Shown piece by piece: positions 3,762 through 41,692 of a stretch of 64,000 bases of DNA. Positions within the stretch are counted from its first letter, which is position 1. The number at the start of each line of letters is the position of its first letter. The position numbers were made by a program, and so were the translations under genes. Where the stretch lies: contig CALRCK010000004.1 in NCBI GenBank assembly GCA_943354605.1, positions 23,584 to 87,583 on the forward strand. The letters run 5' to 3'. This DNA comes from Candidatus Uhrbacteria bacterium (lineage in GTDB: Bacteria; Patescibacteriota; Patescibacteriia; UBA9934). A model generated the notes under the pieces. It made no database searches. It was not told the DNA's origin and worked only from the letters and a program-made list of their open reading frames with translations.

Positions 3762-3768
3762 ATACGAT

Positions 3769-4149: not shown

Positions 4150-4171
4150 TCTCATTTCTAACATTGCCGAT

Positions 4172-4627: not shown

Positions 4628-4632
4628 ACATT

Positions 4633-5574: not shown

Positions 5575-5744
5575 ATCCTCGGCGCCACCAGTTGAATCGT
5601 TCGTTGCGCATATTTGTTCAAAACAAACGACGCATTTAAACGCCCTAGGTTAAAATGGACCTAGTCGAGTGCCTCTGTTTTAAAATACTACAACACGGCT
5701 CAACGTAGTATGCGCTCAATGAACTCGTGCACCAATGAAATACA

Positions 5745-6959: not shown

Positions 6960-6969
6960 AGGATTCGAC

Positions 6970-8430: not shown

Positions 8431-8436
8431 AAGAAA

Positions 8437-9267: not shown

Positions 9268-9270
9268 ACA

Positions 9271-9699
9271 TTACGGCCGCTTTCGCCAAAACACCCACGC
9301 AACGATTGCTCCAATGAAATCATTGAACAGGTCGTCCATCGTATCTGCCAAACTTGGTTGCGCAACACCGAGTTTTTGCACAATCGTGCCAGCGAAGTGG
9401 TCAAAAAGAAACTCATACCACTCCCACGCAACCCCAATGATCATCACGAATCCCACCACAAAAATCGCTTGAAGAAGCCGTCGGGCAACCGGAGATCCTG
9501 ACACCCGTGCACGAATTTCCACACGTACCTCGATCCAATTCCAGAGTGCAAGCGCAAGAATCGCCATGACGTATCCTCCAAAAAAATGCATTGGAACATC
9601 AAACCACTCCAAACTGATGTACCACCCGAGCCCAACCGCAAACACATGAACAAGAAGGACCAACGCTATCGCAAGGAACGCATGGCGGAATCGAATCAT
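9271..9699 (-). CDS. Hypothetical polytopic membrane protein
   Basis: Four predicted TM helices, W-rich. No family assigned. Confidence 0.35.
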   Translation of the reverse strand: MIRFRHAFLAIALVLLVHVFAVGLGWYISLEWFDVPMHFFGGYVMAILALALWNWIEVRVEIRARVSGSPVARRLLQAIFVVGFVMIIGVAWEWYEFLFDHFAGTIVQKLGVAQPSLADTMDDLFNDFIGAIVAWVFWRKRP

Positions 9700-9747
9700 A
9701 ATATGCGAAGGTTAGCACAGTTCCGGCTCCCTGTGAATAAGATCCTC

Positions 9748-9777
9748 ATTGACAATCCGACTTTTAGCACTCTATAC
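9748..9777 (+). promoter_or_regulatory. Sigma-70-like promoter (TTGACA-N18-TATACT) upstream of clpB
   Basis: ttgaca at 9748-9753 and tatact at 9772-9777. The -10 lies inside the CIRCE spacer. Confidence 0.6.
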
Positions 9778-9789
9778 TTGAGAGTGCTA
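9763..9789. promoter_or_regulatory. CIRCE operator (HrcA binding site)
   Basis: Perfect TTAGCACTC-N9-GAGTGCTAA (spacer tatacttga), about 240 bp upstream of the clpB start. Confidence 0.85.
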
Positions 9790-10031
9790 ATTGTCGCAAA
9801 TAGCGTTCAAAATGCGCATGCACAGCTGGCGAGATGTTTCGTTTTCGCATTTCGCGACTGTCAAGTTGACTTTACACTTCACATGCAAATTTCCCAATGT
9901 TTTTGAATGTCGGATGTCAAGTCAAATTGACACGTACAATAGCGTAAAACACACCAGGCTGCTGACGACATTCTTTGTCCTTCAGGCCCATCCAAGGTTC
10001 AGTCAGATCCTTTTCATTATCATATTTCGAT

Positions 10032-12650
10032 ATGATCCCCAACAATTTCACCAGTAAATCTCAAGAGGCCATCCAAAATGCTCAGGCGTTTTCAGAGGAG
10101 AACGGCCAGCACGGTGTGGAGCCCATCCATCTTCTTGCAGCCCTCACCCGCCAGGAAGGTGGCTTCGTCGTGACGATCTTTCAAAAGATGGCCACAAGCC
10201 TTCCTGCACTCTTGGGCGACGTGGATAGAATGTGCGATGCCTTGCCAAAACACGGCCCAGGCGAACGCGGTGGTGTTGGGCAAATCGTCCTCACCCCTTC
10301 CCTTGCACATGTCCTTGAAAATGCCGCGAAGCGATCAAAACAATTTGGTGACGAATATATTTCCACCGAGCATCTTCTCCTCGGCTTGCTTGTGGATCGG
10401 CCCATCGCCGCAATGCTCGCCGAACACCAGGTAACGGAGGAAGCAATTCTTGCCGCGCTCAAAGAACTCCGTGGCAGCCAACGTGTAGACTCACAAGATC
10501 CAGAAACAAAATACCAAGCCATCGAAAAATACAGCATGAACCTCACGGAGCGTGCTCGTCATGGAAAGCTTGATCCCGTGATTGGTCGCGATGAGGAAAT
10601 TCGGCGTGTGATGCAAGTGCTTTCGCGTCGCACCAAAAACAATCCCGTGCTCATTGGCGAAGCTGGAGTTGGAAAAACCGCAATCGTCGAAGGGCTCGCG
10701 AGCCGCATTGTTGCTGGCGACGTTCCAGAAACACTCAAGAACAAAGAAGTGGTTTCGCTTGATTTGGGATCGCTAATTGCGGGAACAAAATTCCGCGGCG
10801 AATTTGAAGAGCGCTTGAAAGCCGTCATGCGTGAAGTGTCGCAGTCCGACGGAAAATACATCTTGTTCATCGACGAGCTCCATATGCTCGTTGGTGCCGG
10901 CAAAGGCGACGAATCGCCGATGGATGCAAGTAATCTCCTCAAGCCAGCACTCGCTCGCGGCGAGCTGCGCGTGATTGGCGCAACAACCACCAAGGAATAC
11001 CAGCGCCATATTGAAAAAGATCAGGCACTTGAACGTCGGTTCCAGCCACTCATGGTGGAAGAGCCGTCGGTGGACGACGCGATTGCAATTCTTCGCGGCA
11101 TTAAAGAGCGTTACGAAATTCATCATGGCGTCCGCATCTCCGACAACGCGATTGTTGCTGCTGTCACACTTTCTGCACGCTATATTCCCGACCGCCAGTT
11201 GCCAGACAAAGCGATCGATCTCATCGACGAAGCCGCCGCAGGCCTCCGACTACAAATCGATTCCATGCCAGAAGAGCTCGACCGCATGACGCGCGAAGAA
11301 ATGCGTTTACAAATTGAACGCCAAGCACTCCTCAAAGAAGACGACAACGCGTCGAAGGAACGCTTAAAAGAAATAGAAAAGTCAATTGCGGACAGCAAAG
11401 AACGATCATCGGAACTGGCGTTGCGCTGGACGAACGAAAAGAATCTCATCGCGTCGATTCGCGAATTGAAGAGCGACATCGACAAACTTGCGAACGAAGC
11501 GGAGTACGAGGAACGCCGTGGCAACCTTGAACGCGTTGCAGAAATTCGCTACAGCGAGCTCCCCCAAAAGCGCGAGGAACTTTCTCAACGCGAAACAGAA
11601 CTGAAGCAATTCCAAACCGAACGCGGCCTACTGAAAGAAGTCATTTCCGAGGAAGACATCGCCACTGTTGTTGGCCGATGGACGCACATTCCGGTGTCGA
11701 AGATGCTCGAAAGCGACATGCAGAAACTTGCACGCATGGAAGACGAATTGCGCAAACATGTTGTTGGCCAAGACGAAGCCATCACCGCCGTCAGCAATGC
11801 GCTCCGCCGATCCCGCGCAGGATTATCGGAAGAGAAGCGCCCGATTGGCTCCTTCATTTTCCTCGGCCCAACCGGCGTAGGAAAAACCGAGCTTGCGCGA
11901 GCGCTCGCCACGTTCATGTTCAACGACGAGAAAGCCCTCGTCCGCTTGGACATGAGTGAGTACATGGAAAAGCACAGCGTGAGCAAAATGATCGGGTCTC
12001 CGCCGGGCTACATTGGCTACGAAGAAGGCGGTCAGCTTTCGGAAAAAATCCGCAAGCATCCATACTCCGTGGTGCTTCTCGACGAAATTGAGAAAGCACA
12101 CCCCGACGTCTTCAACATGCTGTTGCAGATTCTTGACGATGGAAGGCTAACGGACGCGAAGGGCCGCACCGTGAACTTCAAGAACACCATCATCATCATG
12201 ACGAGCAACATCGGGAGTGATGTCATCCTCAATAGCGGAAGAAAAATTGGCTTTGTGGAAGACGGCGACGCAAAGGCCGACGCAACACGCGAAAAGGTTC
12301 TCGATTTGCTTCGTGATCATTTCCGCCCAGAATTCTTGAACCGCATCGACGAAACCATCGTGTTCCACGCACTCGCCAAAGAGCACATCGCTGCGATTGT
12401 CGACCTTCAGTTGGCACTCGTCACCAACCGTCTCAAGGACGCCCGAAATATTGCGGTACAATTCACCGCACGCGCTAAGAAATACGTCGCGGAACACGGC
12501 TACGACCCGCTCTACGGTGCACGACCACTCAAGCGCGTCATTCAATCAAAGATTCTCGACCCTCTCGCGCTCGAAATCGTGAAGGGATCGGTTGCAGTCG
12601 ATTCTTCGGTGACTGTCGATGTGAAAAAAGATGAAATTGTGTTTGGATAA
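10032..12650 (+). CDS. clpB: Chaperone ClpB (AAA+ disaggregase)
   Basis: N-domain, two Walker A motifs (GEAGVGKT; GPTGVGKT), and a long coiled-coil middle domain between the AAA modules. Start placed at MIPNNF (ATG 10032). Confidence 0.9.
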
Positions 12651-12652
12651 CT

Positions 12653-13345
12653 ATGCGAAAACAGCCGGCGCATCTTCGAGCACTGAACGTCGTAAGCATT
12701 CTTGTCTTCGCAGTCTACTTCGTGATCATCTCCGCGGAAGTGATTCAGCTTTGGAGTGTTCTTGGCGCTTGGGGTGTGCTGTGCTCCGCAGTGGCAGGAT
12801 ATATTCTTGCGGACTTCCTCTCGGGATTCGTCCATTTCCTCGGCGACACCTTTGGCAGCCCAACCACGCCAATCATCGGCCCGGCATTCGTCTTCCCGTT
12901 TCGTGAACACCATATCGAGCCTGAAGCAATTACGCATCACGACTTTATCGAAACAAACGGCCACAACTGCCTTGTCTCGATCCCCGTCATGATGATCATG
13001 GCACACGTGCTCTTCAAATACGCGGTCGTGTCGGCGACAGCTGGATTTGCGTTTGCAACATCGTACTTCCTCATTTTTGGCGTGCTTCTTACAAACCAAT
13101 TCCACAAATGGGCCCACATGAAGCGTGCGCCAGCACCAATTCGTTTTCTCCAACGCACTCGCATTATTCTCTCCCCAGCGCATCACAAGATTCACCACAC
13201 CTCCCCCTACACCCGCTACTTCTGCATCACCACCGGCTGGCTGAACTTTACCCTCGACCGTCTGTTCTTCTTCCCCATTGCCAAATTCACGATCCGCCGT
13301 ATTCCGTTCATGCTCAAGACTGCGGAGGAGTATACGGATCGCTAA
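12653..13345 (+). CDS. CarF/PEDS1 (TMEM189)-type membrane lipid desaturase-like protein
   Basis: Polytopic membrane protein with histidine boxes (EHHIEPEAITHHDF; QFHKWAH; HHKIHHTSPYTRYFCITTGWLN). I recall the last block matching the PEDS1/TMEM189 family signature, from memory only. Confidence 0.5.
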   Translation: MRKQPAHLRALNVVSILVFAVYFVIISAEVIQLWSVLGAWGVLCSAVAGYILADFLSGFVHFLGDTFGSPTTPIIGPAFVFPFREHHIEPEAITHHDFIETNGHNCLVSIPVMMIMAHVLFKYAVVSATAGFAFATSYFLIFGVLLTNQFHKWAHMKRAPAPIRFLQRTRIILSPAHHKIHHTSPYTRYFCITTGWLNFTLDRLFFFPIAKFTIRRIPFMLKTAEEYTDR

Positions 13346-13373
13346 ACCTTCATTTCCTTCATCTTCTGGGGAT

Positions 13374-13401
13374 TGACTTTTTTGATATTTTGGCTTAGAT
13401 T
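13374..13401 (+). promoter_or_regulatory. Putative promoter (TTGACT-N16-TAGATT) for the high-GC island gene
   Basis: Sequence match only. Confidence 0.35.
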
Positions 13402-13460
13402 AGCACCTCCCCGGTAACTCTACCTGGGATTCAAGCCACGCCAACTTCCTTGAGGGCTCA

Positions 13461-14933
13461 ATGCTTCTACTCCTTTCCGCCTGCACCGTTCAGAACATCT
13501 ACCCCACCACCACGATCATCTACGACGTGGGCTCCCCCGACACCGAGACCGTTCCCGGCGACAACACGGACACCGGCGACGAGAACCTCGACGCGGGTGC
13601 TCCGAACACCACCGTGGACAACGGCAACCTGGCCGTGGACGTATTCGGCACGGACGGCAACGAGTACTGGCTCTCCGTCGGCAGCGACCAGCTCGCTGAT
13701 GCCAATCTCAACTGGCAGAATAGCTGGGCGTACGGTGGGTACTACTACTCCATCGGCGACTCGGACACCTACGCCAACGATCTCGTGGTGGTAGACGTCA
13801 CGAGCGGCGATGCGGCCAGCTTCGGCAAGGTGCAGTTCTCCGTCGTCGGACAGTCCACCGGGGCCACCTGGGACGCGAACAGCATCCCGGACATCTCCGT
13901 GGACACCGACGAATACCAGGACGACCTCACCGTGAACGGGGTAGAACACCTCCGCTTCAACAACGGCCAGGTAAGCAGCATCTTCCGCGAGTCCATCGCG
14001 CTCGAGGTGTTTCGCAACTGGGGCTACCCCGCCCCGCGGACGAGCTTCGCGTGGCTGTCGAGCAACGTATGGGGCGAAGGCGTCCACGTGCCGTACACGG
14101 TGGTGGAACGCTACCGGGACCAGTGGTGCACGGACCATGCGGACCAGTTGGGCGGAGGCTGCGCGAACGCCTGGGAGGGATGGGGCGACTTCAGCAAGAA
14201 CTACGGCTGGGGGTACTCCATCGCGGAACAGTGCGAAGGCAAGACGTGCGGCAACACGCGCATGGACGAATTCGTGGACCTCCTCGACGTCACGCCCATG
14301 GGCGACGGCTTCGAAGCGGCCACCGCGGACTACCTCGACTGGCCGATGATCCAGGAGCACATGTGCGCAGATTGGATCCTGTGGATCGGGGACGACCCGT
14401 TCCACAACTCCAACAACCTGTACGTTGTGCAGGGGCTGGACGACAAGTTCCGCTTCCTGCCGTACTCCACGGACATCTCCGGCGGACAGACGTGGTACCA
14501 GAACACGTCGCTCTACCCGGGTACCAGCCAGATCGCCATGGGCTGCGCGTACGACGCCGCATGCTGGGAAGAGACGATCAATACCTGCCAGGTGATGATC
14601 GACGAATTCCAGGCCATGCAGCCGGCGAACATCGTCACGAACACCTACGAGCGGCTCGCCGCCCAAGGGATGCTCCGCGACGGTGACGACGCAACGTACG
14701 CGGAACTGCTCGACTGGTACACGACGCGCTCCACCGAGGGAACCCTCGAATCGGAGCTCGACACGTACCGCGAGGCGTGGACCGTGGGCGGATGCGCCGA
14801 CACCGGCATGGTGGTGATGGGCGGTGGCGGCTTCGACACCGGCAACCCCTGCGCCATCGTAGACACGGGCATCGGCAACGACACCGCAGCTCCCCCAGCC
14901 GACGACACGGCCACGGCAGACACGGGAGCGTAG
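13461..14933 (+). CDS. CotH-like secreted lipoprotein (high-GC island 1)
   Basis: Lipobox LLLSAC. Blocks resembling the CotH family (FRNWGYPAPRTSFAWLSSNVWGEGVHVPYTVVERYRD; DKFRFLPYSTDISGG). GC is about 65% with very high GC3, versus about 52% in flanking genes. Confidence 0.45.
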   Translation: MLLLLSACTVQNIYPTTTIIYDVGSPDTETVPGDNTDTGDENLDAGAPNTTVDNGNLAVDVFGTDGNEYWLSVGSDQLADANLNWQNSWAYGGYYYSIGDSDTYANDLVVVDVTSGDAASFGKVQFSVVGQSTGATWDANSIPDISVDTDEYQDDLTVNGVEHLRFNNGQVSSIFRESIALEVFRNWGYPAPRTSFAWLSSNVWGEGVHVPYTVVERYRDQWCTDHADQLGGGCANAWEGWGDFSKNYGWGYSIAEQCEGKTCGNTRMDEFVDLLDVTPMGDGFEAATADYLDWPMIQEHMCADWILWIGDDPFHNSNNLYVVQGLDDKFRFLPYSTDISGGQTWYQNTSLYPGTSQIAMGCAYDAACWEETINTCQVMIDEFQAMQPANIVTNTYERLAAQGMLRDGDDATYAELLDWYTTRSTEGTLESELDTYREAWTVGGCADTGMVVMGGGGFDTGNPCAIVDTGIGNDTAAPPADDTATADTGA

Positions 14934-14961
14934 TCTCCCACGGGCCTTCAGGCCACAACGC

Positions 14962-15000
14962 GAACGGCGCCCTCGAGAGAAGGCGCCGTTCATGCTTTTC
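14962..15000. terminator. Rho-independent terminator (bidirectional; also serves the convergent ppa)
   Basis: gaacggcgcc-ctcgagagaa-ggcgccgttc 10-bp stem followed by atgcttttcg. Confidence 0.6.
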
Positions 15001-15008
15001 GAAAATTG

Positions 15009-15596
15009 TTACGCGACGATCTTTGGAAGAATTTCCTTCTGATATCGCTCGGCACACTCGACGATGATCTTTACCGCCTCATCAGCGTCGAAGAATCCGA
15101 GCACTTTGCATGTTCCCGGCTTCTTCAGATGTTTGTAAAATTCGAAGTAGTGCGCAGTTTCCTTTGCCCAGTGCTCGCCAAGATCTGTGTAGGACGTAAT
15201 GTGGTCCACGCGCTTGTCGTCGGCCAACACACAAATAATCTTGTCATCAATCTCTCCCCCGTCCTCAAACTTCATAATGCCAATGACGCGAACTTCTGCG
15301 AGCGATCCTGGAACGAGCGGCTCAGTGACGTTCGCCACGAGAATATCCAACATGTCGTTGTCCTGGTCCCATGTCTGCGGAATCAATCCGTACACGGTTG
15401 GATACGCCAACGTGGAATATCCCACGCGGTCGAGCTTGAGATGACCAGTCTCCGTGATGAACTCGTACTTGTTGATGCTGCCGGCGTTGATTTCAATCAA
15501 CCCGTTCAACACGCGCTTTTCCTCATTTGCCCATGGGGAAAGCAAGTGAAGTAAATTTGGCATGAACTTCTGAATAGGAACATCGAGATTTGCCAT
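15009..15596 (-). CDS. ppa: Inorganic pyrophosphatase (family I)
   Basis: 195 aa. Asp-rich active-site blocks (EINAGSINKYEF; DILVANV; ICVLADD). Confidence 0.85.
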   Translation of the reverse strand: MANLDVPIQKFMPNLLHLLSPWANEEKRVLNGLIEINAGSINKYEFITETGHLKLDRVGYSTLAYPTVYGLIPQTWDQDNDMLDILVANVTEPLVPGSLAEVRVIGIMKFEDGGEIDDKIICVLADDKRVDHITSYTDLGEHWAKETAHYFEFYKHLKKPGTCKVLGFFDADEAVKIIVECAERYQKEILPKIVA

Positions 15597-15691
15597 ACGT
15601 TTCTTTCAAAAATAAGACTGAACAACGAGGAAATGATGCGTCCCCAGGCCAACCGTGTCAACCAAAGCCTTTTTGGATATACTGGAATCAT

Positions 15692-17065
15692 ATGCAGCAT
15701 CGTTCTCAACGGTTCGCAATTCTTGCCGCTCTTACCGCACTTCTTCTCCCTTCCACCTCTTTCGCGTTCGATCCAAACTATATCCTTTCCGACGAGGAGA
15801 TGACAGATTCGCAGTCCATGGATCTTAATCAGATTCAGGCATTCCTTGAACGCGGAACACTCTCCACATACAAATCGCCTGACTGGGAAGGTCGCACACG
15901 CTACGCTGCCGACATCATTTGGCGCACTGCACAAGAACACGACATCAATCCACGATTCCTTCTCGTCCTCCTGCAAAAAGAACAGAGTCTTGTTGAGGAT
16001 CCAGATCCAACACAAAAACAATACGACTGGGCAACCGGTTATGCGGTCTGCGACACCTGTTCCATGAACGACGGCTCACTGTCGCGTTGGCAAGGCTTTG
16101 GAAAGCAAGTGAATTCTGCAGCGATGCAATTTACCGAAGGCTACATGGTCGATATCGCTGAGCATGGAGTGACGGCTGGAAAGTACGGGCCAGATCTTCC
16201 CGTGACCATCGACGGTACAACGGTTACTCCGGAAAACGCCGCAACCGCCGCAATGTACGCATACACACCACACCTTCATGGCAACAGCAACTTCGTCGCC
16301 ATTTGGGACCGATGGTTTGGAAAAGAATATCCAAGCGGCACATTGCTTCAGGCCGCAGGAGAAGACGGCGTGTATCGCATTGAGCATGGCTACCGACGGC
16401 CAATCACCAGCAAAGCCGCGCTCACGTCGCGATACAACAGCGCGCTGATCATTACGGTTTCAAAAACAACGCTCGAGCAATATCCCGAAGGCGCGCCAAT
16501 TTCATTGCCAAATTATTCGCTCGTGAAAGACGAAGACGGGAATATTTATCTTCTCGTGGACGACACCATGCGCCACGTGGAATCCATGGAAGCCTTCCGT
16601 CAGATTGGATATTCCGAGGACGAGCTCGTGGACATTACTGCAGCTGAAGTTGCGCAGTACGCGGTTGGCACGCCTATCACCGCATCCACGCAAGATCCAA
16701 CGGGCAAAGTCGTAAAGCTTACCACGAACGGCGCAATGTTTTATTTGAACAACGGCGTTCGCCAGGCGATTCTCGACCCAGCGATTCTCACGGCAAACTT
16801 CCCAACGGCAACCGTCGAAGATGCTGCGCCAGTGGTCATTGAGCAATACCGAGAAGGATCGTTCTTGAAGCTTCCGGACGGAACCCTCGTCCGTTCATAC
16901 GAAAATCCTGCGGTGTATGTTATTTCCGACGGCAAGAAACTCCCAATCACCAGCGAACAGATCTTCCTCGATTACGGATACGCCTGGAGCAACGTCGTCT
17001 TTGTGAACGACGACGTGTTAAATCTTCACCCAACCGGCGACAGCCTTCTCGAATCTAATACTTAA
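15692..17065 (+). CDS. Secreted protein with four tandem roughly 60-aa C-terminal repeats
   Basis: Signal peptide (MQHRSQRFAILAALTALLLPSTSFA). Four repeats share ..Y.i..G.rrpI.s...f...GY....v..v....L...P.G..., beginning GVYRIEHGYRRPITS, NIYLLVDDTMRHVES, AMFYLNNGVRQAILD and AVYVISDGKKLPITS. Confidence 0.55.
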   Translation: MQHRSQRFAILAALTALLLPSTSFAFDPNYILSDEEMTDSQSMDLNQIQAFLERGTLSTYKSPDWEGRTRYAADIIWRTAQEHDINPRFLLVLLQKEQSLVEDPDPTQKQYDWATGYAVCDTCSMNDGSLSRWQGFGKQVNSAAMQFTEGYMVDIAEHGVTAGKYGPDLPVTIDGTTVTPENAATAAMYAYTPHLHGNSNFVAIWDRWFGKEYPSGTLLQAAGEDGVYRIEHGYRRPITSKAALTSRYNSALIITVSKTTLEQYPEGAPISLPNYSLVKDEDGNIYLLVDDTMRHVESMEAFRQIGYSEDELVDITAAEVAQYAVGTPITASTQDPTGKVVKLTTNGAMFYLNNGVRQAILDPAILTANFPTATVEDAAPVVIEQYREGSFLKLPDGTLVRSYENPAVYVISDGKKLPITSEQIFLDYGYAWSNVVFVNDDVLNLHPTGDSLLESNT

Positions 17066-17086
17066 CTGAAAACATTTTCAAAAACT

Positions 17087-17878
17087 ATGATCGTCTTTGT
17101 CGGGATCACCCCATGCTCGCCACTCATGCTTCCGTCGGTGAATCCTGAACGCGTTGGGCTCATCGAAAAAACGCGAAACGCGATGCACGAGCTTTCTGAA
17201 GAACTCTTTGCAACACATCCCGACACCATCGTGATTTTTTGCCAACATTCCGCCACGCCACAAGATGCATTCGCAATGAACGTTGCCGATCCGTACATTG
17301 CAACACTCGCCGCATTCGGCGACCTCGGGTATACGCAGATGTATCATCCCGACTTCATGCTTGCCGACAAAGCGCAACGCGAACTTCGCAAAAGCGGCAT
17401 TTCCGTCACACTTGTCACGGAGTCTGATCTGCCATTTGGCGCAACAGTGCCGCTTGACTTTTTGCGTGAGCATCTTCCAAATGTTCACATTCTTCCCATT
17501 GCTCCGTGCGGTTTAACCGCTAAAGAGCACTTCGATTTTGGCGCAGCGCTGCGCAACATCCTTGTGGAAAGCCCAAAGCGCATTGCCGTCATCGCCTCCG
17601 GTGATTGTTCACACACCCGCTCTGCGGATGCGCCAGGCGGACTACACGAAGAAGGCAAGCGGTCTGACGATTTACTCGAAACGCTCATTGCACAAAAAAA
17701 TACCGCTGGTTTGCTCCAGTTCGACGAGAACCTTCTCAAGGCCGGACAAGACGCGGCATACAAACAAATTGTCATGCTTTTTGGTGCGCTTGATGGCATG
17801 CCAGCAGAAAGTCGCATCCTCTCCCACGAAGCACCATTTGGCGTTGGCGAAATCGTTGCCGAGCTTGTTCTCAACTAA
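17087..17878 (+). CDS. Memo/AmmeMemoRadiSam-system protein B-like (class III extradiol dioxygenase fold)
   Basis: 263 aa with an IASGDCSH block and an overall Memo1-like pattern. Family call is tentative. Confidence 0.4.
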   Translation: MIVFVGITPCSPLMLPSVNPERVGLIEKTRNAMHELSEELFATHPDTIVIFCQHSATPQDAFAMNVADPYIATLAAFGDLGYTQMYHPDFMLADKAQRELRKSGISVTLVTESDLPFGATVPLDFLREHLPNVHILPIAPCGLTAKEHFDFGAALRNILVESPKRIAVIASGDCSHTRSADAPGGLHEEGKRSDDLLETLIAQKNTAGLLQFDENLLKAGQDAAYKQIVMLFGALDGMPAESRILSHEAPFGVGEIVAELVLN

Positions 17879-17881
17879 TCT

Positions 17882-19630
17882 GTGTACGCGAAAGTTTTCC
17901 CTATTCTGCGACTCCCTCGTCGCTTCACTGTTTTCGATTACGCCATTCCTGACGGCATGTCGGTGAAGGTTGGTGATGTCATTCGCATCCCGTTCCGTCA
18001 TCGCACGGTGCTCGGTGTGGTGAAAGCGATATCGGATTCATCGAATGAGGAGCGAGTGATCGATATCGCGAGCGGCTCGATCGGCTTCACAATCCCCGAG
18101 ATCGATCTTGCACGCGTCGAAACGATTGCGTCGGAACTCGGACAATCCGTCTCATCGATTCTGAACGTGGCGTACGAAGGATTGAATGCGTATCCAAATC
18201 GAGACGATGCAGCGCGTCGCCTGTACAATTCGAAATCGACCTCGCCACGAATCGATCAGGAAACCATTACGAACGTGCACGCCGTCATCGACCGCCTGAA
18301 GACCGACCGCGCAATCTCGCACGCGTGCGACAGCCAAACCTTTTGCGTTCTTGCACACGCCGTTTGCAAAACCACACCGAATCAAGTAGTCATTCTCGTT
18401 CCCCGCGAACGTGACGCACGATTCGTCGCAGGAATGCTTTCGCAATTTGCACCATCAATTCTTACTGGAAAAATTCCGTCGCGCGATCGGAATCGTATTC
18501 TCCGATCGTGGCAGAGTGGCGATACTCGCGTGCTCATCGGAACTCGGCAGAGCGTCCTTATCGCTCCACAATCACTCGGAGCGGTTCTTGTGTATCAATC
18601 CGGGTGCGAGGATTATGGAAGTCCATTGCGCAACCCACACATCGATGCCGTTCGCGTTGCGGAGGCCCTCGCAAAATCCGCAGGATCGATCTTCGTTTCC
18701 GCCGATGTGTTCCCCGCTCCGTCGGCAACGCTTTCCCTTCTTGTCGCGAACGACGGGGCCGATGTCGCGCTCATCGATGTGGCGCATAAAGGCGAAAATT
18801 CCCCGTACCCGCTCATCAGCCAAACGCTCCTGGAGAGCATAAAATTGGCTTTACAGAGCCAAAAAAAGGTGCTACTATCGTTTAACCGAAAGGGCGTAGC
18901 AAAGCGCATGGAGTGCAGGGCCTGTGGCCACGTTCCGTTCTGTGGAACGTGCGGCAGCCTGCCCATGGTTCGTCTCGATGATCTGCTGTGCACCGCGTGT
19001 GGGACAGAGATGTGGAGGCCAACCACGTGCCCCGCATGCGGCTCCCCAAAGATCGGACTAAAGTCTATCGGCGGCGCAAAGATCGCAGACGATTTGCACA
19101 AAGCGTTTCCGGAAGTGACGATTGGTCATATTCAAAAAGGTCAGATTGATCGTGGCGTGGACATCGTGCTCGCAACTGAATTTTTCTTCTCGAGCGTCAT
19201 CGAACCATTCGCCGCATACAGCTTTGGCGTTATTGCGGAGATTCTCGGCGATCTCGCATTTACTCCCGGCGATTATCGCGGTGCAGAAATGACCGCACGG
19301 AAAATCGCACGACTTCGCCATCTCGCTTCTCGTGAAAACGCCGAGTGCATCGTCCAAACGCTTACACGCGATCGACTGCAATCGCTCCTCGGCGCCGAGT
19401 ACGTGAACTGTGTGGAACGTGAGGCGCGAAAGAAATATTCCCTTCCTCCATTCGGCGTCGTTGTCGAATTCGAAGGCGCAACGCGCGAATCCCTTCCAGC
19501 CGATATCACAACACGCATCGTTGATCGCGGAGAGAAGCTTGTTGCGAAAATCGACCGTGAAACATTCATCGTTTGGCAAAAACTCTTTCCCACAATCCCC
19601 GATTCGATTAAGATACGGATAAGCCAGTAG
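17882..19630 (+). CDS. priA: Primosomal protein N' (PriA)-like, with degenerate helicase motifs
   Basis: PriA-like N-terminus (RFTVFDYAIPDGMSVKVGDVIRIPFRHRTVLGVV) and Cys-rich zinc-binding region (CRACGHVPFCGTCGS...CTACG...CPACGS). No Walker A motif. The DEEH box is replaced by YQSGCED. Confidence 0.65.
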   Translation: MYAKVFPILRLPRRFTVFDYAIPDGMSVKVGDVIRIPFRHRTVLGVVKAISDSSNEERVIDIASGSIGFTIPEIDLARVETIASELGQSVSSILNVAYEGLNAYPNRDDAARRLYNSKSTSPRIDQETITNVHAVIDRLKTDRAISHACDSQTFCVLAHAVCKTTPNQVVILVPRERDARFVAGMLSQFAPSILTGKIPSRDRNRILRSWQSGDTRVLIGTRQSVLIAPQSLGAVLVYQSGCEDYGSPLRNPHIDAVRVAEALAKSAGSIFVSADVFPAPSATLSLLVANDGADVALIDVAHKGENSPYPLISQTLLESIKLALQSQKKVLLSFNRKGVAKRMECRACGHVPFCGTCGSLPMVRLDDLLCTACGTEMWRPTTCPACGSPKIGLKSIGGAKIADDLHKAFPEVTIGHIQKGQIDRGVDIVLATEFFFSSVIEPFAAYSFGVIAEILGDLAFTPGDYRGAEMTARKIARLRHLASRENAECIVQTLTRDRLQSLLGAEYVNCVEREARKKYSLPPFGVVVEFEGATRESLPADITTRIVDRGEKLVAKIDRETFIVWQKLFPTIPDSIKIRISQ

Positions 19631-19642
19631 TCGCAAATGTTC

Positions 19643-19741
19643 GTCATGTTGAGCGAAGCGAAACATCTCCGTAGGGAGAACTGATAACCTGCGAGAGATG
19701 CTTACCCCTCCGGGGCACAAGTCGCCTTCGCTCAGCATGAC
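19643..19741. repeat. Structured inverted-repeat element (family 2, copy B)
   Basis: Outer inverted repeat gtcatgttgagcgaagcgaaac / gtcgccttcgctcagcatgac. Inner hairpin tctccGTAgggaga. Core cccctccggggcacaagtcgccttcgctca, shared with the copy at 5482-5510. Confidence 0.45.
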
Positions 19742-19764
19742 TGAAAAAACATACGCATACGTCT

Positions 19765-20235: not shown

Positions 20236-20238
20236 TCT

Positions 20239-21156
20239 ATGCGTGTTGTTTTCTTTGGCACTCCAGCACTCGCGCGATCCATTCTTGAAGCCCTTGTTGC
20301 TGACACGGAAATCGACGTGGTTGGTGTAATCTGCCAGCCCGACGAACCGGTGGGACGAAAGGCCATCCTCACCGCGCCGCCAACGAAACAGTTCGCGATC
20401 GAACATGCAATTCCCGTCTTTCAACCAACAAAACTCAAGGACGAAACATTTCTCTCCATGCTCGATGCGTTACATGCCGATGTTGCTGTTGTACTTGCGT
20501 ACGGCCGCATTCTGCCGCAAATTCTTTTAGATCGCATCCCCGGTGGATTCATCAACGTACATCCGTCGCTTTTACCAAAATATCGTGGACCGTCACCGAT
20601 TCAAGCCGCGATTCTCGCGGGAGATTCTGTGACCGGAGTCTCGATCATGAAGCTCGACGCAGGAATGGACACCGGTCCGCTTCTCGCACAATCCAAAATC
20701 GATCTCGCCGACGATGAGACATCGGAGACGCTGACAAAGAACGTCATCGATCTCAGCGCACCGCTCCTGATCGAAACACTCAAGGGCTACATGGCCGAAA
20801 CCATCTCGCCGATCCCGCAGAGCGCTGAAGGAGTTTCAATCTGCAAACTCCTCGACCGCGCAGATGGAAAAATCAACTGGACAGAACCCGCCGACGTCAT
20901 CGACCGCAAAGTGCGTGCGCTGACGCCGTGGCCAGGCACATCAACAACATGGGTGATTGGTGGAAAGGAAATCGGAGTAAAGATTTTGAAAACACGCCGC
21001 ACGGAATTGGACTCGCACGAAGTCGGCGTTCCTCGATCTGAATTCGGAAAACTCGTCGTCGATTCCGCAAACGGCACGCTGGAAATTCTTGAACTTCAAC
21101 CCGCCGGTGGCAAGGCAATGTCTGGCGCAGATTTTGTACGTGGATATTTGAAATAA
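20239..21156 (+). CDS. fmt: Methionyl-tRNA formyltransferase
   Basis: Formyltransferase N-domain (VVFFGTP...INVHPSLLPKYRG) plus C-terminal domain. Lies directly after def. Confidence 0.9.
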   Translation: MRVVFFGTPALARSILEALVADTEIDVVGVICQPDEPVGRKAILTAPPTKQFAIEHAIPVFQPTKLKDETFLSMLDALHADVAVVLAYGRILPQILLDRIPGGFINVHPSLLPKYRGPSPIQAAILAGDSVTGVSIMKLDAGMDTGPLLAQSKIDLADDETSETLTKNVIDLSAPLLIETLKGYMAETISPIPQSAEGVSICKLLDRADGKINWTEPADVIDRKVRALTPWPGTSTTWVIGGKEIGVKILKTRRTELDSHEVGVPRSEFGKLVVDSANGTLEILELQPAGGKAMSGADFVRGYLK

Positions 21157-21203
21157 TGCCGCAAATGACGTAGAGTTCCTCGGCAACCCCACCGGAGCCC
21201 ACC

Positions 21204-21614
21204 ATGTTCCTGCCCCTGTTCTTCATCACCTCAGCCGCTCTCGCCGCCTTCGAGCCCTGCAAGCTCTCCGCACTGGAGCTCGATCTCCCGCTGTACGTCC
21301 GCATCAGCCAAACCCTGGCGGCGAACGGCATGACGAACACGTCGGTGCTGTACGCCACGGCACCGGACCCGATGTTCGAGAACGACGCGCCCATCGAATT
21401 CCGCTTCGTCCCGAGTATCCTCCCCGTACTGACGCTCGTCGTCACTCACCGGGAACCCATCGCGGTGAGTGACGGCCCGGTGACGATCGCGGCAATCTCC
21501 GACGAATTCGTCGTGGATCTCCACGGCGACGTGAAGGGCGGCCAGTCGTGCGAGGTGCGCCTCGAGATGGCCAACCAGGCGCTAGAGGAGATGCACCAAG
21601 CCTACGGGTTCTGA
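21204..21614 (+). CDS. Hypothetical secreted protein (high-GC island 2)
   Basis: Signal-like N-terminus MFLPLFFITSAALAAFEPC. GC3-rich, about 65% GC. A terminator-like hairpin follows at about 21649-21686. Confidence 0.35.
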   Translation: MFLPLFFITSAALAAFEPCKLSALELDLPLYVRISQTLAANGMTNTSVLYATAPDPMFENDAPIEFRFVPSILPVLTLVVTHREPIAVSDGPVTIAAISDEFVVDLHGDVKGGQSCEVRLEMANQALEEMHQAYGF

Positions 21615-21784
21615 CAGGCCCGAAGGCAACCACGAAACACGAACGATCCTCACCCACGCACAGCGGCCCTCCCTGGTCGCTGTTGTCGTTTTTCATCGCT
21701 GCCAAAATTCGACTTTAACCCTTCGCGTCGAAGCCGAAGCTTAGCTTAGGCGGGAATCAACATGAGTCAAAACTCGGTTTTGAC

Positions 21785-23374: not shown

Positions 23375-23378
23375 AGGT

Positions 23379-26835: not shown

Positions 26836-27081
26836 TCACGCGTACGTCCCAACAACGGCCGCACCAAGGACCAACACCACCGGAACACTGAACGCAGTCC
26901 AGAGCGTCCAGGACTGGCGCCACGTCATCGACGGCTTGGCATTCAACGCGAGCCGGATCGTGACGAACAGCCACCATGCGAAGGCGACAATCATCATCGC
27001 GAGCGGAAACAGCACCGCGAGCACCATCGCGAGCCCGATGATGCCGAACGGCAGCCAGTCGCCCTTTCCCATGCGCGGCAT
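26836..27081 (-). CDS. Small membrane protein (high-GC island 3, second gene)
   Basis: 81 aa with two TM helices. GC3-rich. Its start follows the upstream ORF stop by 1 nt. Confidence 0.3.
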   Translation of the reverse strand: MPRMGKGDWLPFGIIGLAMVLAVLFPLAMMIVAFAWWLFVTIRLALNAKPSMTWRQSWTLWTAFSVPVVLVLGAAVVGTYA

Positions 27082-27082
27082 C

Positions 27083-27304
27083 TCACCCCCCTCCCTTGAG
27101 CTTGGCGATCTCGTCGAGTTTGCTCATGATCGCCGTCGTCTCGTCCTCCCGTAGCGAGTAATGGAATACCAAGAGGAAAAGGGTAGCTGCGAATCCGAGC
27201 CACAGCCAGTTACCGGTGACGAAGGCGCAGATGATAAACGCCGTCACCGCAATCAGCGATCCACCAATGAAGATCAGCAGCTTGAATTCGTAAAGACACC
27301 CCAT
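27083..27304 (-). CDS. Small membrane protein (high-GC island 3, first gene)
   Basis: 73 aa with two TM helices. GC3-rich. Confidence 0.3.
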   Translation of the reverse strand: MGCLYEFKLLIFIGGSLIAVTAFIICAFVTGNWLWLGFAATLFLLVFHYSLREDETTAIMSKLDEIAKLKGGG

Positions 27305-27827: not shown

Positions 27828-27829
27828 AA

Positions 27830-31350: not shown

Positions 31351-31601
31351 AACTTTGCGATATGATACCACATTCACCTCAGTGGTGAGCGCGGTATTAC
31401 CGCTTCAGTAAAGCACCGGGATTGTAGGCCAGACGCGAAAAAGTGTCAATTATTTACCCACAAACGCCCTATTTTCCACCTTTTCATTGCTTTTCCCTTT
31501 ATTTTGTGCTATTCTTCCGCCGCGCCCGTCATTGATAGGCGTCTGTAACGGCCAGATCCGTCGTTGTCCCCGTCCCTCGCTCCCTCAATGGAGTTTCCCG
31601 C

Positions 31602-31976
31602 ATGTCCCGTTCGTCATCACAAACTGGTGCCCGCTTCCTCGCGGGCGATCGCTGCGAATCCCATCGCAGCACCCAGAACCGCCGGCCCAAGTCCGGTCCC
31701 GCCGCCAAGGGCTCCCCGCCCAGCAGCCACGCCCCAGAAGGCTACACGTCGGAGAAGTCCGGCACGGTCGTCGTCGTGCGCCGCAACGACATCGGTGCCG
31801 CCCCGGCACCGAACCGCTCCTCCGCCCATCACGAGCCCGGAGTCGTCATCCCGACGAAGTTCCCCGCGCCCAAGGCCGCCAACAGCAGCCCAGCAGACAC
31901 CGGCATGGCGTCGAACAACGGGCACTACCGAAACGGCCGCAGCGGCCGTTGCTCCGGCAAGCGCGCCTCGGGCTGA
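31602..31976 (+). CDS. Hypothetical low-complexity basic protein (high-GC island 4)
   Basis: 124-aa ORF with very high GC3 in this frame only. ggag sits 8 nt upstream of the ATG. Ser/Pro/Arg-rich with no recognisable domain. Could instead be a decayed or noncoding insert. Confidence 0.25.
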   Translation: MSRSSSQTGARFLAGDRCESHRSTQNRRPKSGPAAKGSPPSSHAPEGYTSEKSGTVVVVRRNDIGAAPAPNRSSAHHEPGVVIPTKFPAPKAANSSPADTGMASNNGHYRNGRSGRCSGKRASG

Positions 31977-32086
31977 TCGGGATCGGTCGGTCGGAGAACA
32001 CGGCGTCGCGCAGAACGTGCGCTACGCAAAGGCCGGTCGTCTTCCCCAGACGGCCGGCCTCATCGCATCTATGGGGATTTTTTTGT

Positions 32087-39057: not shown

Positions 39058-39810
39058 ATGGACACGACGGATCGTGTGCAGCTGTTCGTCCCCAACGAAC
39101 AGCCACGCTTCAGAAAGCACTTTCCCGCACATCTCAAGGACGCCACCACGGCTGCAAAGGAATTCCTGCGGGAATACCCAGCAGGCGTGGCACCGGCCGA
39201 CCTCGAGGACTGGGTTGCGAGCATCGACCACAGCGCACTACACACATTCCACAACACCGAGGAGCTCGTCTGCGCCGCCACCGGCGTGTACTACAGCGTT
39301 GTCGCGGAAGGCATGGATCGAGTCCTCACGCGCCAATTCATCGGCGCCCTTGGTCAGATCAGGCTCACCAAAGCCGTCATGACCCTGAACCTGGAAAATC
39401 GTCGACAGCTCCTGCGGCTCGAGAGCGTCGCAGCAAAACGGACGCACAGTGTTCTGGGCGTCGCTCGGCTGGCGGCAGCGCTCAACGCAGCAGGGGCGAG
39501 ATGCTATCTTCCCACCGCGCATGAAGACGCCAGGTGGAAAATCGATCTCCTCTTCACCCACGGCGACGCAGTAGCGTGCGTTCAGGTGAAGCAAGGCCAA
39601 AGTTCCTGCAGGCGAATCGTTGAGCCATTCGACCCAAGGGAGGAGGAATTCCTTCGCGGTGTTCACCAGTTCAGCGCGGAACATTCCGTCAGCGCAGTCC
39701 CCTTGTGGGTTGCGATAGGAAACCGAGGAAAGCATTCCGCGACCACGATGTGTTCGCCCGAATCGATCCAGTTCGGAATGCAGGTCGTATCAACCGCCAG
39801 GAAGACGTGA
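39058..39810 (+). CDS. Hypothetical protein (high-GC island 5)
   Basis: 250-aa GC3-rich ORF with its own TTGACG-N17-TAGGAT promoter-like sequence, a GGAGGA RBS, and a GC-rich terminator immediately after. Confidence 0.4.
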   Translation: MDTTDRVQLFVPNEQPRFRKHFPAHLKDATTAAKEFLREYPAGVAPADLEDWVASIDHSALHTFHNTEELVCAATGVYYSVVAEGMDRVLTRQFIGALGQIRLTKAVMTLNLENRRQLLRLESVAAKRTHSVLGVARLAAALNAAGARCYLPTAHEDARWKIDLLFTHGDAVACVQVKQGQSSCRRIVEPFDPREEEFLRGVHQFSAEHSVSAVPLWVAIGNRGKHSATTMCSPESIQFGMQVVSTARKT

Positions 39811-41305: not shown

Positions 41306-41692
41306 ATGTTCACGCCGCTTTTCAGCTCCAACACCCTCTGGCTCGTTGCCCTCGCGATCGTTGCCACCGGAGCCATCTTCCGGCTCAGGCGGGAACGCGC
41401 CGCGGCGACAAACCCGGACGAGCCCCTGCTCACAAAGTTCGACGCGCTCCATGCCGCAATCCTGGCAGACACGGTCAGCGAAGCGAGCTTCGCCGCGTGG
41501 GCGGAGCATGTCCCCCACCGGCACCCCCAGAACCGATCGACGGCACAGACATCGGCCCTCCTTGCCTGCCGAACCGGCCTGCAGGAGGCGATGCGCCACC
41601 GCGGCTGGAAGCGACAGACCATCAGCGGATTCATCAACACGTTCTGGCACATCACCACGGAGGACATCGACGCGCTCCTCACGAAGCGGTGA
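41306..41692 (+). CDS. Hypothetical membrane-anchored protein (high-GC island 6)
   Basis: N-terminus MFTPLFSSNTLWLVALAIVATGAIF, which resembles the island-2 protein N-terminus MFLPLFF... GC3-rich. Confidence 0.35.
   Translation: MFTPLFSSNTLWLVALAIVATGAIFRLRRERAAATNPDEPLLTKFDALHAAILADTVSEASFAAWAEHVPHRHPQNRSTAQTSALLACRTGLQEAMRHRGWKRQTISGFINTFWHITTEDIDALLTKR

Follow-up and report, generated by a model that had tools for sequence, protein, structure and literature searches.

We analysed a window of 64,000 nucleotides from a Patescibacteria contig ('Candidatus Uhrbacteria' bacterium; CALRCK010000004.1, positions 23,584 to 87,583, forward strand), with an overall GC content of 52.3% and housekeeping proteins that cluster with those of 'Patescibacteria group bacterium'. 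All six GC-rich islands of the original prediction were recovered with a 150-bp scan (threshold, at least 62% GC), at 62 to 67% GC: island 1 at 13451-15025 (63.7%), island 2 at 21176-21675 (64.4%), island 3 at 26776-27150 (63.7%), island 4 at 31551-32100 (67.1%), island 5 at 39126-39600 (61.9%), and island 6 at 41276-41725 (64.4%). They lie between the housekeeping genes listed there (clpB-desaturase/ppa, fmt/wzy, wzx/rpsI, infA/alaS, pduL/GT2, and trmH/rlmD, respectively). A few smaller GC peaks were also seen, e.g., 37626-37900, a Ser/Thr/Ala-rich linker within a PKD protein.

Coding frames of the islands were set by three-base periodicity. Backbone GC3 was 0.570 ± 0.049 (range, 0.43 to 0.65; 40 ORFs of the window), versus 0.89 for the 490-aa ORF of island 1 (z = 6.5), 0.87 for island 2 (136 aa; z = 6.1), 0.84 and 0.74 for ORFs a and b of island 3 (81 and 73 aa; z = 5.5 and 3.5), 0.83 for the best frame of island 4 (124 aa; z = 5.3), 0.70 for island 5 (250 aa; z = 2.6), and 0.84 for island 6 (128 aa; z = 5.6). 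Extreme GC3 had been claimed throughout; the islands generally exceed the backbone (0.70 to 0.89 versus 0.57), but the enrichment of island 5 is mild. Genes flanking the islands have no GC3 enrichment. Translational selection was ruled out as the source of high GC3, with ribosomal-protein and other backbone genes at 0.47 to 0.65, and DGR-type hypermutation was set aside, as whole genes are biased and neither a reverse transcriptase nor a template repeat was seen. Low-GC islets occur in the same window (3718-5274 and 42967-44301; GC3, 0.38 to 0.41), so mixed donors are probable and a single GC-rich source is unlikely. Long ORFs antisense to the islands are shadow frames (GC1, ~0.88). They were expected to mislead annotation and do so in two of the fetched comparison loci (L numbers below), L113 and L114, where the wrong strand was called for the island-4 slot and for other GC-rich slots of both. 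Island proteins matched no PADLOC defence model. In tblastn of these proteins against all fetched loci (no composition correction; low-complexity matches produced by island 4 in its wrong, Pro/Ala-rich frame discarded), the sole meaningful matches were of island 5 to L113-L115.

The gene of island 1 (13461..14933, forward strand) follows a predicted sigma-70-like promoter (13373..13401, forward strand; TTGACT-17-TAGATT, pattern scan) and a 5' UTR that holds a small hairpin. The same arrangement (ATTGAC..N17..TAnATTAG plus hairpin) precedes the orthologues in L001, L006, L009, L010, and L118 and is absent from L003 and L116, the loci of high-GC homologues; the window and L001 have homologous -10 regions (p = 0.0005). 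Downstream, a GC-rich terminator hairpin (14962..14991, forward strand; 13-nt inverted repeat, 4-nt loop) is common to island 1 and the convergent ppa. It matches L001 at 44 of 52 nt, with one compensatory stem change, and relatives with an empty slot have a different hairpin at this position. A promoter and terminator had been proposed for each island. Both are conserved in relatives for island 1, but promoter-like sites are in general no commoner than in shuffled sequence (12 found versus 11.1 expected in 13000-32500).

Pfam, fold, and lipobox agree with the prediction that island 1 encodes a CotH-like lipoprotein. Residues 172-373 match PF08757 (CotH) at 28.4 bits (cut-off, 23.8), a match that is also precomputed for many homologues. 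Searched with Foldseek, the AF2 model (pLDDT, 80.8; pTM, 0.81) gave as its best PDB matches the Bacillus cereus CotH kinase 5JD9 (E = 5e-13; target TM, 0.73) and 5JDA (E = 1e-12), followed by the HipA and CtkA kinases; the CotH profile matched no PDB sequence, and this relation was found by fold search only. The N-terminus (MLLLLSAC) carries a lipobox (LLSAC, read by eye against [LVI][ASTVI][GAS]C) with Cys8 invariant in the alignment, and the feature is present in homologues of both phyla discussed below. The motif GDDxxHNxNN...PYSTDIS shows little or no variation among 27 homologues; D311, D312, and D338 never vary, and N316 and N319 vary in few copies or none. In Bacillus subtilis CotH, the catalytic Asp and the metal-binding Asp (D228/D251) lie 23 residues apart (PMC7821199); the spacing here is 26 to 27, with residue correspondence taken from spacing rather than from superposition. 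The product is thus predicted to be a lipoprotein anchored at the surface, with an atypical protein-kinase fold of the CotH type. It resembles the spore-coat kinases of B. cereus and B. subtilis (PF08757; 5JD9/5JDA) in Pfam family, fold, and, tentatively, Asp/Asn/Asp spacing, but differs in its ~10% identity to the solved structure, its low-confidence acidic or Thr-rich tails, and its N-terminal lipidation and surface location in a non-sporulating, ultra-small bacterium. The putative kinase would phosphorylate an extracellular or cell-surface substrate at an interface with another cell. When the exact CotH protein of the window was looked up among contigs, no record came back.

Island 2 encodes a secreted protein of 136 aa that carries a signal peptide (21204..21614, forward strand; frame by GC3 periodicity), behind a putative promoter-like site known from pattern scan only (21148..21176, forward strand; TTGAAA-17-TAGAGT). 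The protein matched no Pfam family. Among 5.8 billion protein clusters it had only four homologues, 61 to 66% identical, and none beyond close relatives. Slot 2 of L001 holds a 137-aa orthologue (25% identity; E = 6e-9; GC3, 0.83), while the adjacent fmt is ~60% identical between the window and L001. Judged from these matches, the gene is a lineage-restricted orphan. A terminator hairpin with a T-run follows (21660..21683, forward strand; pattern scan). It is kept in L034, where slot 2 has an unrelated LuxR-type HTH gene, so the terminator is a property of the slot rather than of the island 2 gene. Island 3 has two genes on the reverse strand: gene a (26836..27081; 81 aa, three hydrophobic segments), with a hairpin downstream (26793-26826), and gene b (27083..27304; 73 aa, two hydrophobic segments). 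Both form singleton clusters, and gene a has no homologue in any fetched locus.

Island 5 encodes a 250-aa protein (39058..39810, forward strand) followed by a hairpin (39818-39847). The protein has a helical domain at the N-terminus and a PD-(D/E)xK-like one at the C-terminus (AF2 pLDDT, 83.5). It has no Pfam match. D163...Q176-V-K178 is invariant in five sequences, and Foldseek aligned ~90 residues of the C-terminal domain with archaeal Hjc resolvases (probability, 1.0; E weak at 0.02; TM, 0.43 to 0.5). The product looks like a PD-(D/E)xK nuclease-like protein, predicted to be cytoplasmic and not secreted. It appears to share with Hjc/PD-(D/E)xK proteins the invariant D...QxK and a C-terminal domain that superposes on Hjc, and differs in its additional 140-residue helical N-terminal domain. 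Orthologues in congeners are 44 to 54% identical, versus 88 to 97% for the flanking proteins. No homologue beyond close relatives turned up among 5.8 billion protein clusters; searched by profile, the protein fell into a wider family of 83 representatives of mixed amino-acid composition, which argues against a high-GC origin. Island 6 encodes a 128-aa protein anchored by a single N-terminal transmembrane segment (41306..41692, forward strand; start placed beyond the trmH overlap) and matches no Pfam family. The N-terminus said to be shared by islands 2 and 6 (MFLPLFF/MFTPLF) does not reflect homology (E = 1.4), and a common origin of the two proteins on that ground was rejected. The claim that every island yields a small secreted or membrane protein does not hold for island 5, and for island 4 it is uncertain.

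Island 4 (unit, 31551..32076, forward strand; 67% GC) lies between infA and alaS and is hypervariable. Its best frame (31602-31976, forward strand) encodes 124 aa, basic and of low complexity, and two hairpins stand on its 3' side. Counterparts of 65 to 68% GC occur in L113 and L114; in L029 the unit is absent (gap, 265 bp). The flanks (upstream region and both 3' hairpins) align among relatives and the interior is unalignable, mismatches between L113 and L114 lack codon phase (23:23:22 by codon position), and the low-complexity window frame has no significant protein similarity to that of L113. These observations suggest that island 4 may not be a protein gene; that it is a GC-rich structured RNA or a decayed remnant, transcribed from its own promoter, we regard as improbable. 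Three-base periodicity is strong in the window copy (GC3, 0.88 to 0.90 over 31680-31979), and in one frame of L113 and L114 a basic peptide is plausibly conserved. No Rfam family matched island 4 (best local score, 25.9 bits versus a threshold of 50), and in the window as a whole two tRNAs alone passed the gathering score; RNase P or another known RNA was rejected on these searches.

All six slots vary among the relatives examined (L034, L001, L006, L030, and L032 compared at slots 1 and 2; L029 at slots 3 to 6; L113 and L114 additionally at slots 4 and 5). In slot 1, the 1,675 bp of the window correspond to 62 bp in L034, the relative closest to it (ClpB, 97% identical); across L034/L033 (ClpB, 97%) and L035-37 (ClpB, 93%), 60 to 70 bp containing only a hairpin separate the desaturase gene from ppa. 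In L032, clpB directly adjoins ppa, L030 has a low-GC 177-aa ORF, and the CotH gene is present in L001, L006, and L010. L034 also has its own 2.4-kb GC-rich insert in the slot neighbouring slot 2. Slots 3, 5, and 6 of L029 hold other genes, in slot 6 an unrelated 80-aa ORF of 52% GC. The synteny check suggested with the prediction thus found slots that are empty, hold a fast-diverged orthologue, or hold an unrelated gene in congeners, and the islands are flexible-genome cassettes. No sign of a classic integrative mobile element was seen: no direct repeats bracketing the islands were found, no island contains a recombinase ORF, and the window's only tRNAs (40712-40788 and 51252-51325) abut none of them.

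Homologues of island 1 that are 40 to 53% identical lie on contigs of 61 to 74% GC (Sorangium, Polyangiaceae, and Myxococcales), where their GC3 is native, and one 53%-identical copy is located in a 'Candidatus Uhrbacteria' bin. Outside Patescibacteria, the family is known from these high-GC Myxococcota and from uncultured freshwater bacteria related to them. In a neighbour-joining tree with bootstrap (414 columns, midpoint-rooted), a clade with 97% support joins Patescibacteria copies to the high-GC copies L003 and P0004 (locus L116), the Sorangium and Polyangiaceae copies fall outside it, and the Patescibacteria copies form a group that is paraphyletic with respect to a high-GC clade. Transfer of the gene between Patescibacteria and Myxococcota is well supported by this phylogeny. 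Because the tree is midpoint-rooted and the Patescibacteria copies are paraphyletic, it does not fix the direction or number of transfers. Movement from Myxococcota to Patescibacteria seems most likely, the family being broad and long-form in Sorangium/Polyangiaceae and patchy in Patescibacteria. As the best high-GC copy is only 53 to 55% identical to island 1, no transfer would be recent.

The GC3 excess has persisted. Four-fold sites of housekeeping genes are saturated between the window and L001 (p4, 0.57 to 0.69), and those of the CotH gene are saturated as well (p4, 0.58; our estimate for random pairs at CotH composition, ~0.6), with a GC4 of 0.86 and 0.81, versus the ~0.64 that we estimate for neutral decay over that distance. 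Patescibacteria CotH copies overall have a GC3 of 0.81 to 0.94. A homologous terminator is common to the window and L001, as are promoter and terminator to L006 and L010; flank similarity to L003, the only high-GC homologue tested, was not found (p = 0.997). On the assumption that terminator-sharing cassettes diverged inside genomes of ~52% GC, homologous flanks combined with saturated four-fold sites and high GC4 indicate that the excess is not merely a fresh donor signature, and recent transfer with incomplete amelioration does not fit island 1. G<->C changes far exceed GC->AT changes in branch counts at four-fold sites, a qualitative result given the small counts that saturation leaves to parsimony polarisation. 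Donor and recipient could not be told apart by the choice of G versus C in GC-ending codons. Either the bias is maintained or a GC-rich pool keeps re-seeding the cassettes; a reservoir such as a GC-rich Patescibacteria lineage, plasmid, or phage would also fit.

The explanation that we favour, and hold to be probable though far from certain, is that the islands are exchangeable, self-contained cassettes, one of which has crossed phyla, and that their GC3 bias is kept or renewed. They would be small flexible-genome units of an Uhrbacteria-like Patescibacteria (CPR) lineage of ~52% GC, each with one or two genes and a hairpin at or beside its end, and with a conserved promoter for island 1 alone. 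The slots would be intergenic positions between conserved housekeeping operons, which across congeners and sister genera are empty, hold an orthologue diverging faster than its flanks, or hold an unrelated gene. The island 1 gene most likely moved from Myxococcota to Patescibacteria, would then have gained a Patescibacteria-type promoter and terminator, and may afterwards have been inherited or have spread within Patescibacteria. The remaining islands appear lineage-restricted and fast-evolving, with putative secreted or membrane proteins in islands 2, 3, and 6. GC-biased gene conversion, acting in recombination-prone cassettes, or selection on DNA or mRNA could maintain the bias; renewal could come from repeated supply by a GC-rich gene pool.

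A rather unlikely alternative is that the cassettes are native, fast-evolving genes whose GC3 was driven up in situ, through GC-biased gene conversion at hotspots of recombination or through transcript selection, the CotH likeness then reflecting export or an ancient, unrelated transfer. In islands 1, 2, and 5 high GC3 coincides with faster protein divergence, which is consistent with such a history, as are the persistence of GC3 through saturation, the nesting of a high-GC clade among Patescibacteria copies, and slots that act as sites of recombination or replacement between conserved flanks; island 4, at 65 to 70% GC without codon phase between L113 and L114, suggests a force on DNA rather than on codons. 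The broad, long-form occurrence of CotH in Sorangium/Polyangiaceae and its patchiness in Patescibacteria favour import instead. The flanking genes, where crossovers would be expected, lack GC3 enrichment, and other variable-slot genes, in relatives and in the window, are low in GC. The known effect of gene-conversion hotspots is similar in kind, a local and persistent rise in GC3 with faster protein evolution; in the mammalian Fxy case, raised GC3 is reportedly paired with accelerated protein evolution. The magnitude here is larger (0.57 to 0.89), and flanking genes are unaffected. Bacterial GC-biased gene conversion, as Lassalle et al. are said to have described it in 2015, has effects much smaller than this, and we know of no bacterial case of such size.

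The prediction itself proposed repeated acquisition from a high-GC donor, which, if the organism is an episymbiont, could be its host (an actinobacterium as one possibility). Read as recent, independent gains of all six islands from one donor, with un-ameliorated GC3, we now consider it improbable. Atypical composition, slots that are empty in the nearest congener (L034), the absence of island 4 from L029, and the high-GC relatives of island 1 all speak for a foreign source. A high-GC partner is supported for island 1; islands 2 and 5 have no high-GC homologue among the 5.8 billion clusters, and the wider family of island 5 is compositionally mixed. Recency fails for islands 1 and 2, which have syntenic orthologues in the synonymously saturated L001 at a GC3 still of 0.83 to 0.89, in island 1 with a homologous terminator, a GC4 well above neutral expectation, and the distant best high-GC match noted above. 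The actinobacterial partner is contradicted by the named homologues of island 1, which are Myxococcota (Polyangiaceae/Sorangium), none of them actinobacterial.

It is similarly improbable, in our view, that an unusually strong local GC-favouring process holds exchangeable surface or accessory cassettes at a GC3 of ~0.8 to 0.95, in a genome of ~52% GC and for long enough to saturate synonymous sites, with a Myxococcota partner marked by CotH; a candidate for such a process would be gene conversion through frequent uptake and recombination of partner or host DNA. Assembly or binning chimerism, i.e., fragments of a co-assembled high-GC organism in a Patescibacteria contig, is scarcely credible despite sharp composition boundaries and a metagenomic source, as the same cassette occupies the same slot across independent samples and assemblers (L001/L002 and L006/L007, each from different sequencing runs; L113; L114), products of islands 2, 3, and 5 recur in a second source (Logan, two contigs each), AT-rich Patescibacteria-type promoters on the cassettes are missing from high-GC homologues, and boundaries fall at intergenic terminators.

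The favoured reading, of exchangeable cassettes with a kept or renewed bias, has known parallels. Like the islets in the amelioration framework of Lawrence and Ochman, the cassettes are atypical in composition, patchy in distribution, and set between conserved genes, with one gene (island 1) nested among foreign homologues; unlike them, they are GC-rich rather than AT-rich, are single-gene units, and show no GC3 decay across saturated synonymous divergence. With phage 'morons' and flexible-genome islets they share an exchangeable promoter-gene-hairpin unit among conserved neighbours (promoter conserved for island 1), but they lie among chromosomal ribosomal, tRNA-synthetase, and cell-envelope genes, with no prophage context seen. 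The same likenesses and differences apply to the genomic islands or transferred genes reported for groundwater Patescibacteria, for which the phylum-level donor table does not include Myxococcota (PMC12455944).

GC-rich cassettes of this kind generate long antisense shadow ORFs, a warning for annotation. Atypical composition is commonly taken as a sign of recent transfer with amelioration ongoing, and a single-gene cassette that retains foreign-like GC3 through synonymous saturation challenges that assumption. If a local GC-favouring process were at work, the cassettes would be a compact natural bacterial system for its study. Hosts are mostly unknown for Patescibacteria, and a surface-exposed putative kinase gene shared with freshwater and soil Polyangia-like Myxococcota offers a concrete partner hypothesis. 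If true, it would give this uncultivated Patescibacteria clade its first host candidate, freshwater Polyangia-like bacteria.

Against an overall GC content of 52.3%, a 150-bp scan of the window recovered the six segments of the original prediction at 62 to 67% GC (13451-15025, 21176-21675, 26776-27150, 31551-32100, 39126-39600, and 41276-41725; islands 1 to 6). Coding frames were assigned by three-base periodicity, giving genes in island 1 (13461-14933, +), island 2 (21204-21614, +), island 3 (two genes, 26836-27081 and 27083-27304, both −), and island 5 (39058-39810, +), a best frame in island 4 (31602-31976, +), and a gene in island 6 (41306-41692, +), with the start placed after the trmH overlap. 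Third-codon-position GC (GC3) of the island open reading frames (ORFs) was 0.89, 0.87, 0.84, 0.74, 0.83, 0.70, and 0.84 (z scores, 2.6 to 6.5) versus a backbone of 0.570 ± 0.049 (n = 40 ORFs in the window), confirming islands rich in both GC and GC3. The long antisense ORFs, predicted to be spurious, were indeed shadow frames (GC1, ∼0.88). Recorded gene calls in GC-rich slots of two related loci (L113, 2478-2828 and 5427-5783; L114, 1429-1773 and 9365-9805) had a GC1 of 0.76 to 0.86 and lower GC3 and are probably shadow ORFs on the wrong strand, a practical annotation hazard with such cassettes. The local GC peak at 37626-37900 reflects no island but a low-complexity linker rich in Ser, Thr, and Ala within an ORF (37196-38602, −) whose protein has relatives with PKD and TSP3 domains. 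Two low-GC islets (3718-5274 and 42967-44301; 42 to 44% GC; GC3, 0.38 to 0.41; z roughly −3 to −4) code for four orphan proteins (143, 269, 252, and 188 amino acids), with no Pfam match for any and no PADLOC match for the last three; thus, the window holds compositionally atypical inserts in both directions.

Housekeeping proteins of the window group in 90%-identity clusters labelled “Patescibacteria group bacterium,” and one CotH homologue belongs to a bin labelled “Candidatus Uhrbacteria.” Compared with that of the window, ClpB was 96 to 97% identical in related loci L034/L033 (Hainich groundwater), 93% in L035, 88% in L001, 80 to 81% in L010, and 73 to 74% in L006, L030, L032, L038, and L039. 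L036 and L037 were placed with L035 by ppa identity (90%), L036 additionally by a partial ClpB match (87%); comparison of L037 with the window gave no ClpB match. The window and L034, probably congeners, have different bases at roughly half of their four-fold sites and 77 to 87% nucleotide identity in aligned blocks. Between the window and L001, four-fold sites are saturated (differing fraction, 0.57 to 0.69), with identity of only ∼60% for fmt, wzy, and priA. L006 ClpB is 90 to 92% identical to those of L030 and L032; locus GC differs by 5 to 7 points (52.7% versus 46.0% and 47.3%), and only the GC-richer L006 carries the CotH cassette of island 1, which L030 and L032 lack.

Synteny comparison confirmed that the island slots in relatives are empty, orthologue filled, or occupied by other genes. 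Slot 1 (desaturase/ppa) spans 1,675 bp in the window and carries the CotH gene also in L001, L006, and L010; it is 60 to 70 bp with only a hairpin terminator in L034/L033 and L035 to L037, clpB is directly adjoined by ppa in L032, and L030 has a 177-amino-acid low-GC ORF. Slot 2 (fmt/wzy) holds an orthologue in L001 (25% identity; E value, 6e−9; GC3, 0.83), an unrelated LuxR-type helix-turn-helix gene upstream of the same terminator as in the window in L034, and a 209-amino-acid ORF in L032. The congener L029 is without island 4 (infA-alaS gap, 265 bp), has an 80-amino-acid ORF of 52% GC in slot 6, holds a different gene (166 amino acids) in slot 5 and several others in slot 3, and bears GC-rich mini-ORFs of its own elsewhere. 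Islands 4 and 5 both occur in L113 and L114. Conversely, L034 carries a GC-rich 2.4-kb insert between ppa and p491 (L034 7899-9916; 62 to 65% GC), without counterpart in the window, where the slot is only 93 bp (15597-15690).

The three ORFs of the L034 insert (118, 309, and 236 amino acids) are apparently paralogous, and their helix-hairpin-helix tails look alike by eye; of the two scanned against Pfam, one (236 amino acids) hit PF03118, the C-terminal domain of RNA polymerase alpha, at 30 bits, and the other (309 amino acids) had no match. Islands 1 to 6 showed no bracketing direct repeats, adjoining tRNA gene, or internal recombinase ORF. The window has two copies (40590-40700 and 51129-51235) and a further partial one (31057-31099) of a hairpin-forming, ∼105-nt repeat (predicted energy, −38.7 kcal/mol) that adjoins tRNA-Arg and tRNA-Gln. 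In relatives (L029 2499-2605 and 15999-16095; L034 7702-7798) it lies at variable-slot edges, by the post-rpsI GC-rich ORF of L029 and at the end of the L034 insert. It may represent an element of the REP or MITE type that marks recombination or insertion sites. Downstream of clpB, L010 has a multigene stretch (5600-16000; GC3, 0.70 to 0.94) that includes the CotH gene and a 602-amino-acid ORF with a weak, below-threshold match to IS110-family transposases; the stretch resembles the same hotspot on a larger scale. The lipid-desaturase gene adjoining island 1 (12653-13345) has a four-fold-site GC (GC4) of 0.68 to 0.69 versus 0.53 to 0.55 in its L034 and L001 orthologues, diverges fast (74% and 56% identity, respectively), is absent from L006 and L032, and may itself belong to the flexible region.

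The island 1 product exceeded the Pfam CotH threshold (28.4 versus 23.8 bits). Its alignment-based AlphaFold model (pLDDT, 80.8; pTM, 0.81) best matched the Bacillus cereus CotH kinase (5JD9 and 5JDA; E value, 5e−13; target TM, 0.73), with HipA and CtkA kinases ranking next. The N terminus forms a lipobox (MLLLLSAC) whose Cys is invariant, and a GDDxxHNxNN...PYSTDIS motif is invariant or nearly so, its Asp spacing resembling that of the catalytic residues D228/D251 of Bacillus subtilis CotH (PMC7821199). We infer a putative surface-anchored atypical kinase. Among 68 homologues, those named were from Sorangium, Polyangiaceae, and Myxococcales; in GTDB genomes, the gene lies in contexts of 61 to 74% GC, where its GC3 is native. 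Unnamed homologues (48 to 55% identity) lie on contigs of 67 to 69% GC that also hold Ser/Thr kinase, guanylate cyclase, and OmpA- and VWA-type genes. Copies in Patescibacteria contexts (window, L001, L006, L009, L010, and L118, with a distant one in L028) have flanks of 52 to 55% GC and a GC3 of 0.81 to 0.94. A midpoint-rooted neighbor-joining bootstrap tree grouped (L006, L010, P0013), ((window, L001), P0003), L009, and a nested high-GC clade (L003, P0005, P0012, P0006, P0010, and P0004) in one 97% clade, outside which the long forms of Sorangium and Polyangiaceae fall. Because this clade mixes Patescibacteria and high-GC copies, the sequences make a solid case for interphylum transfer. Myxococcota harbor the family broadly, and its occurrence in Patescibacteria is patchy; this favors import into Patescibacteria, in one or more events. 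Of the predicted foreign acquisition, the accessory nature and variable slots thus hold for the islands, and a foreign link is demonstrable for island 1; for this one traceable island, a myxobacterial partner replaces the proposed actinobacterial donor.

Islands 2 and 5 each had four homologues among 5.8 billion clusters, all unnamed and 40 to 66% identical; the two island 5 homologues with contigs fetched (P0108 and P0109) occupy the same slot in congeners. A profile search extended the island 5 family to 83 representatives of mixed amino acid composition, which gives no pointer to a high-GC source. D163...Q176xK178 is invariant in island 5 proteins, and the C-terminal domain of the model (pLDDT, 83.5) weakly resembles Hjc resolvases. 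Island 4 has conserved flanks and a hypervariable interior, mismatches between L113 and L114 lack codon phase, and no Rfam family matched. The expectation of small secreted or membrane products held for islands 3 and 6, predicted to encode small membrane proteins, and failed for island 5, whose protein lacks a signal peptide.

All Patescibacteria CotH copies have an AT-rich consensus promoter (ATTGAC-N17-TAnATTAG), a 5′ untranslated region hairpin, and a terminator, all absent from the high-GC copies; cassette flanks of the window and the high-GC locus L003 share no sequence. In the terminator region, the window and L001 have in common a 52-nt stretch with 44/52 matching positions and a compensatory change in the stem (P < 0.0005); for L006 and L010, similarity extends to the promoter as well as the terminator. 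Each pair thus descends from one insertion or from a cassette passed between Patescibacteria. CotH four-fold sites of the window and L001 differ at a fraction of 0.58 (random expectation for this composition, roughly 0.6), yet GC4 is 0.86 and 0.81, respectively; the neutral expectation is ∼0.64 (two-state relaxation estimate with housekeeping divergence as input), and polarized branch counts gave more G↔C than GC→AT changes. Island 2 shows the same pattern, with 25% protein identity between the window and L001 (versus ∼60% for fmt) and a GC3 of 0.87 and 0.83. Among congeners, island 5 proteins are 44 to 54% identical versus 88 to 97% for flanking proteins, with a GC4 of 0.59 to 0.75 versus 0.48 to 0.59 in flanking genes. 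Core genes, ribosomal ones included, lack high GC3, which makes translational selection an unlikely cause of the high GC3 of the islands. The original proposal of repeated acquisition from a high-GC donor, read as recent transfer from a single host, is not supported, since GC3 persists despite saturation. Chimeric assembly is excluded in practice by recurrence of the same cassettes in independent sequencing runs and assemblers.

Groundwater Patescibacteria are known to carry genomic islands and transferred genes; there, transfer happens largely inside the phylum, and the donor table does not list Myxococcota (PMC12455944). Unlike those islands, the window cassettes are GC-rich, single-gene units (in this like phage morons), one is linked specifically to Myxococcota, and their GC3 shows no sign of decay. 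High GC4 and GC3 at saturation mean that the bias of the cassettes is either maintained or renewed: maintenance could act through gene conversion or selection on DNA or mRNA, and renewal would require a GC-rich pool.
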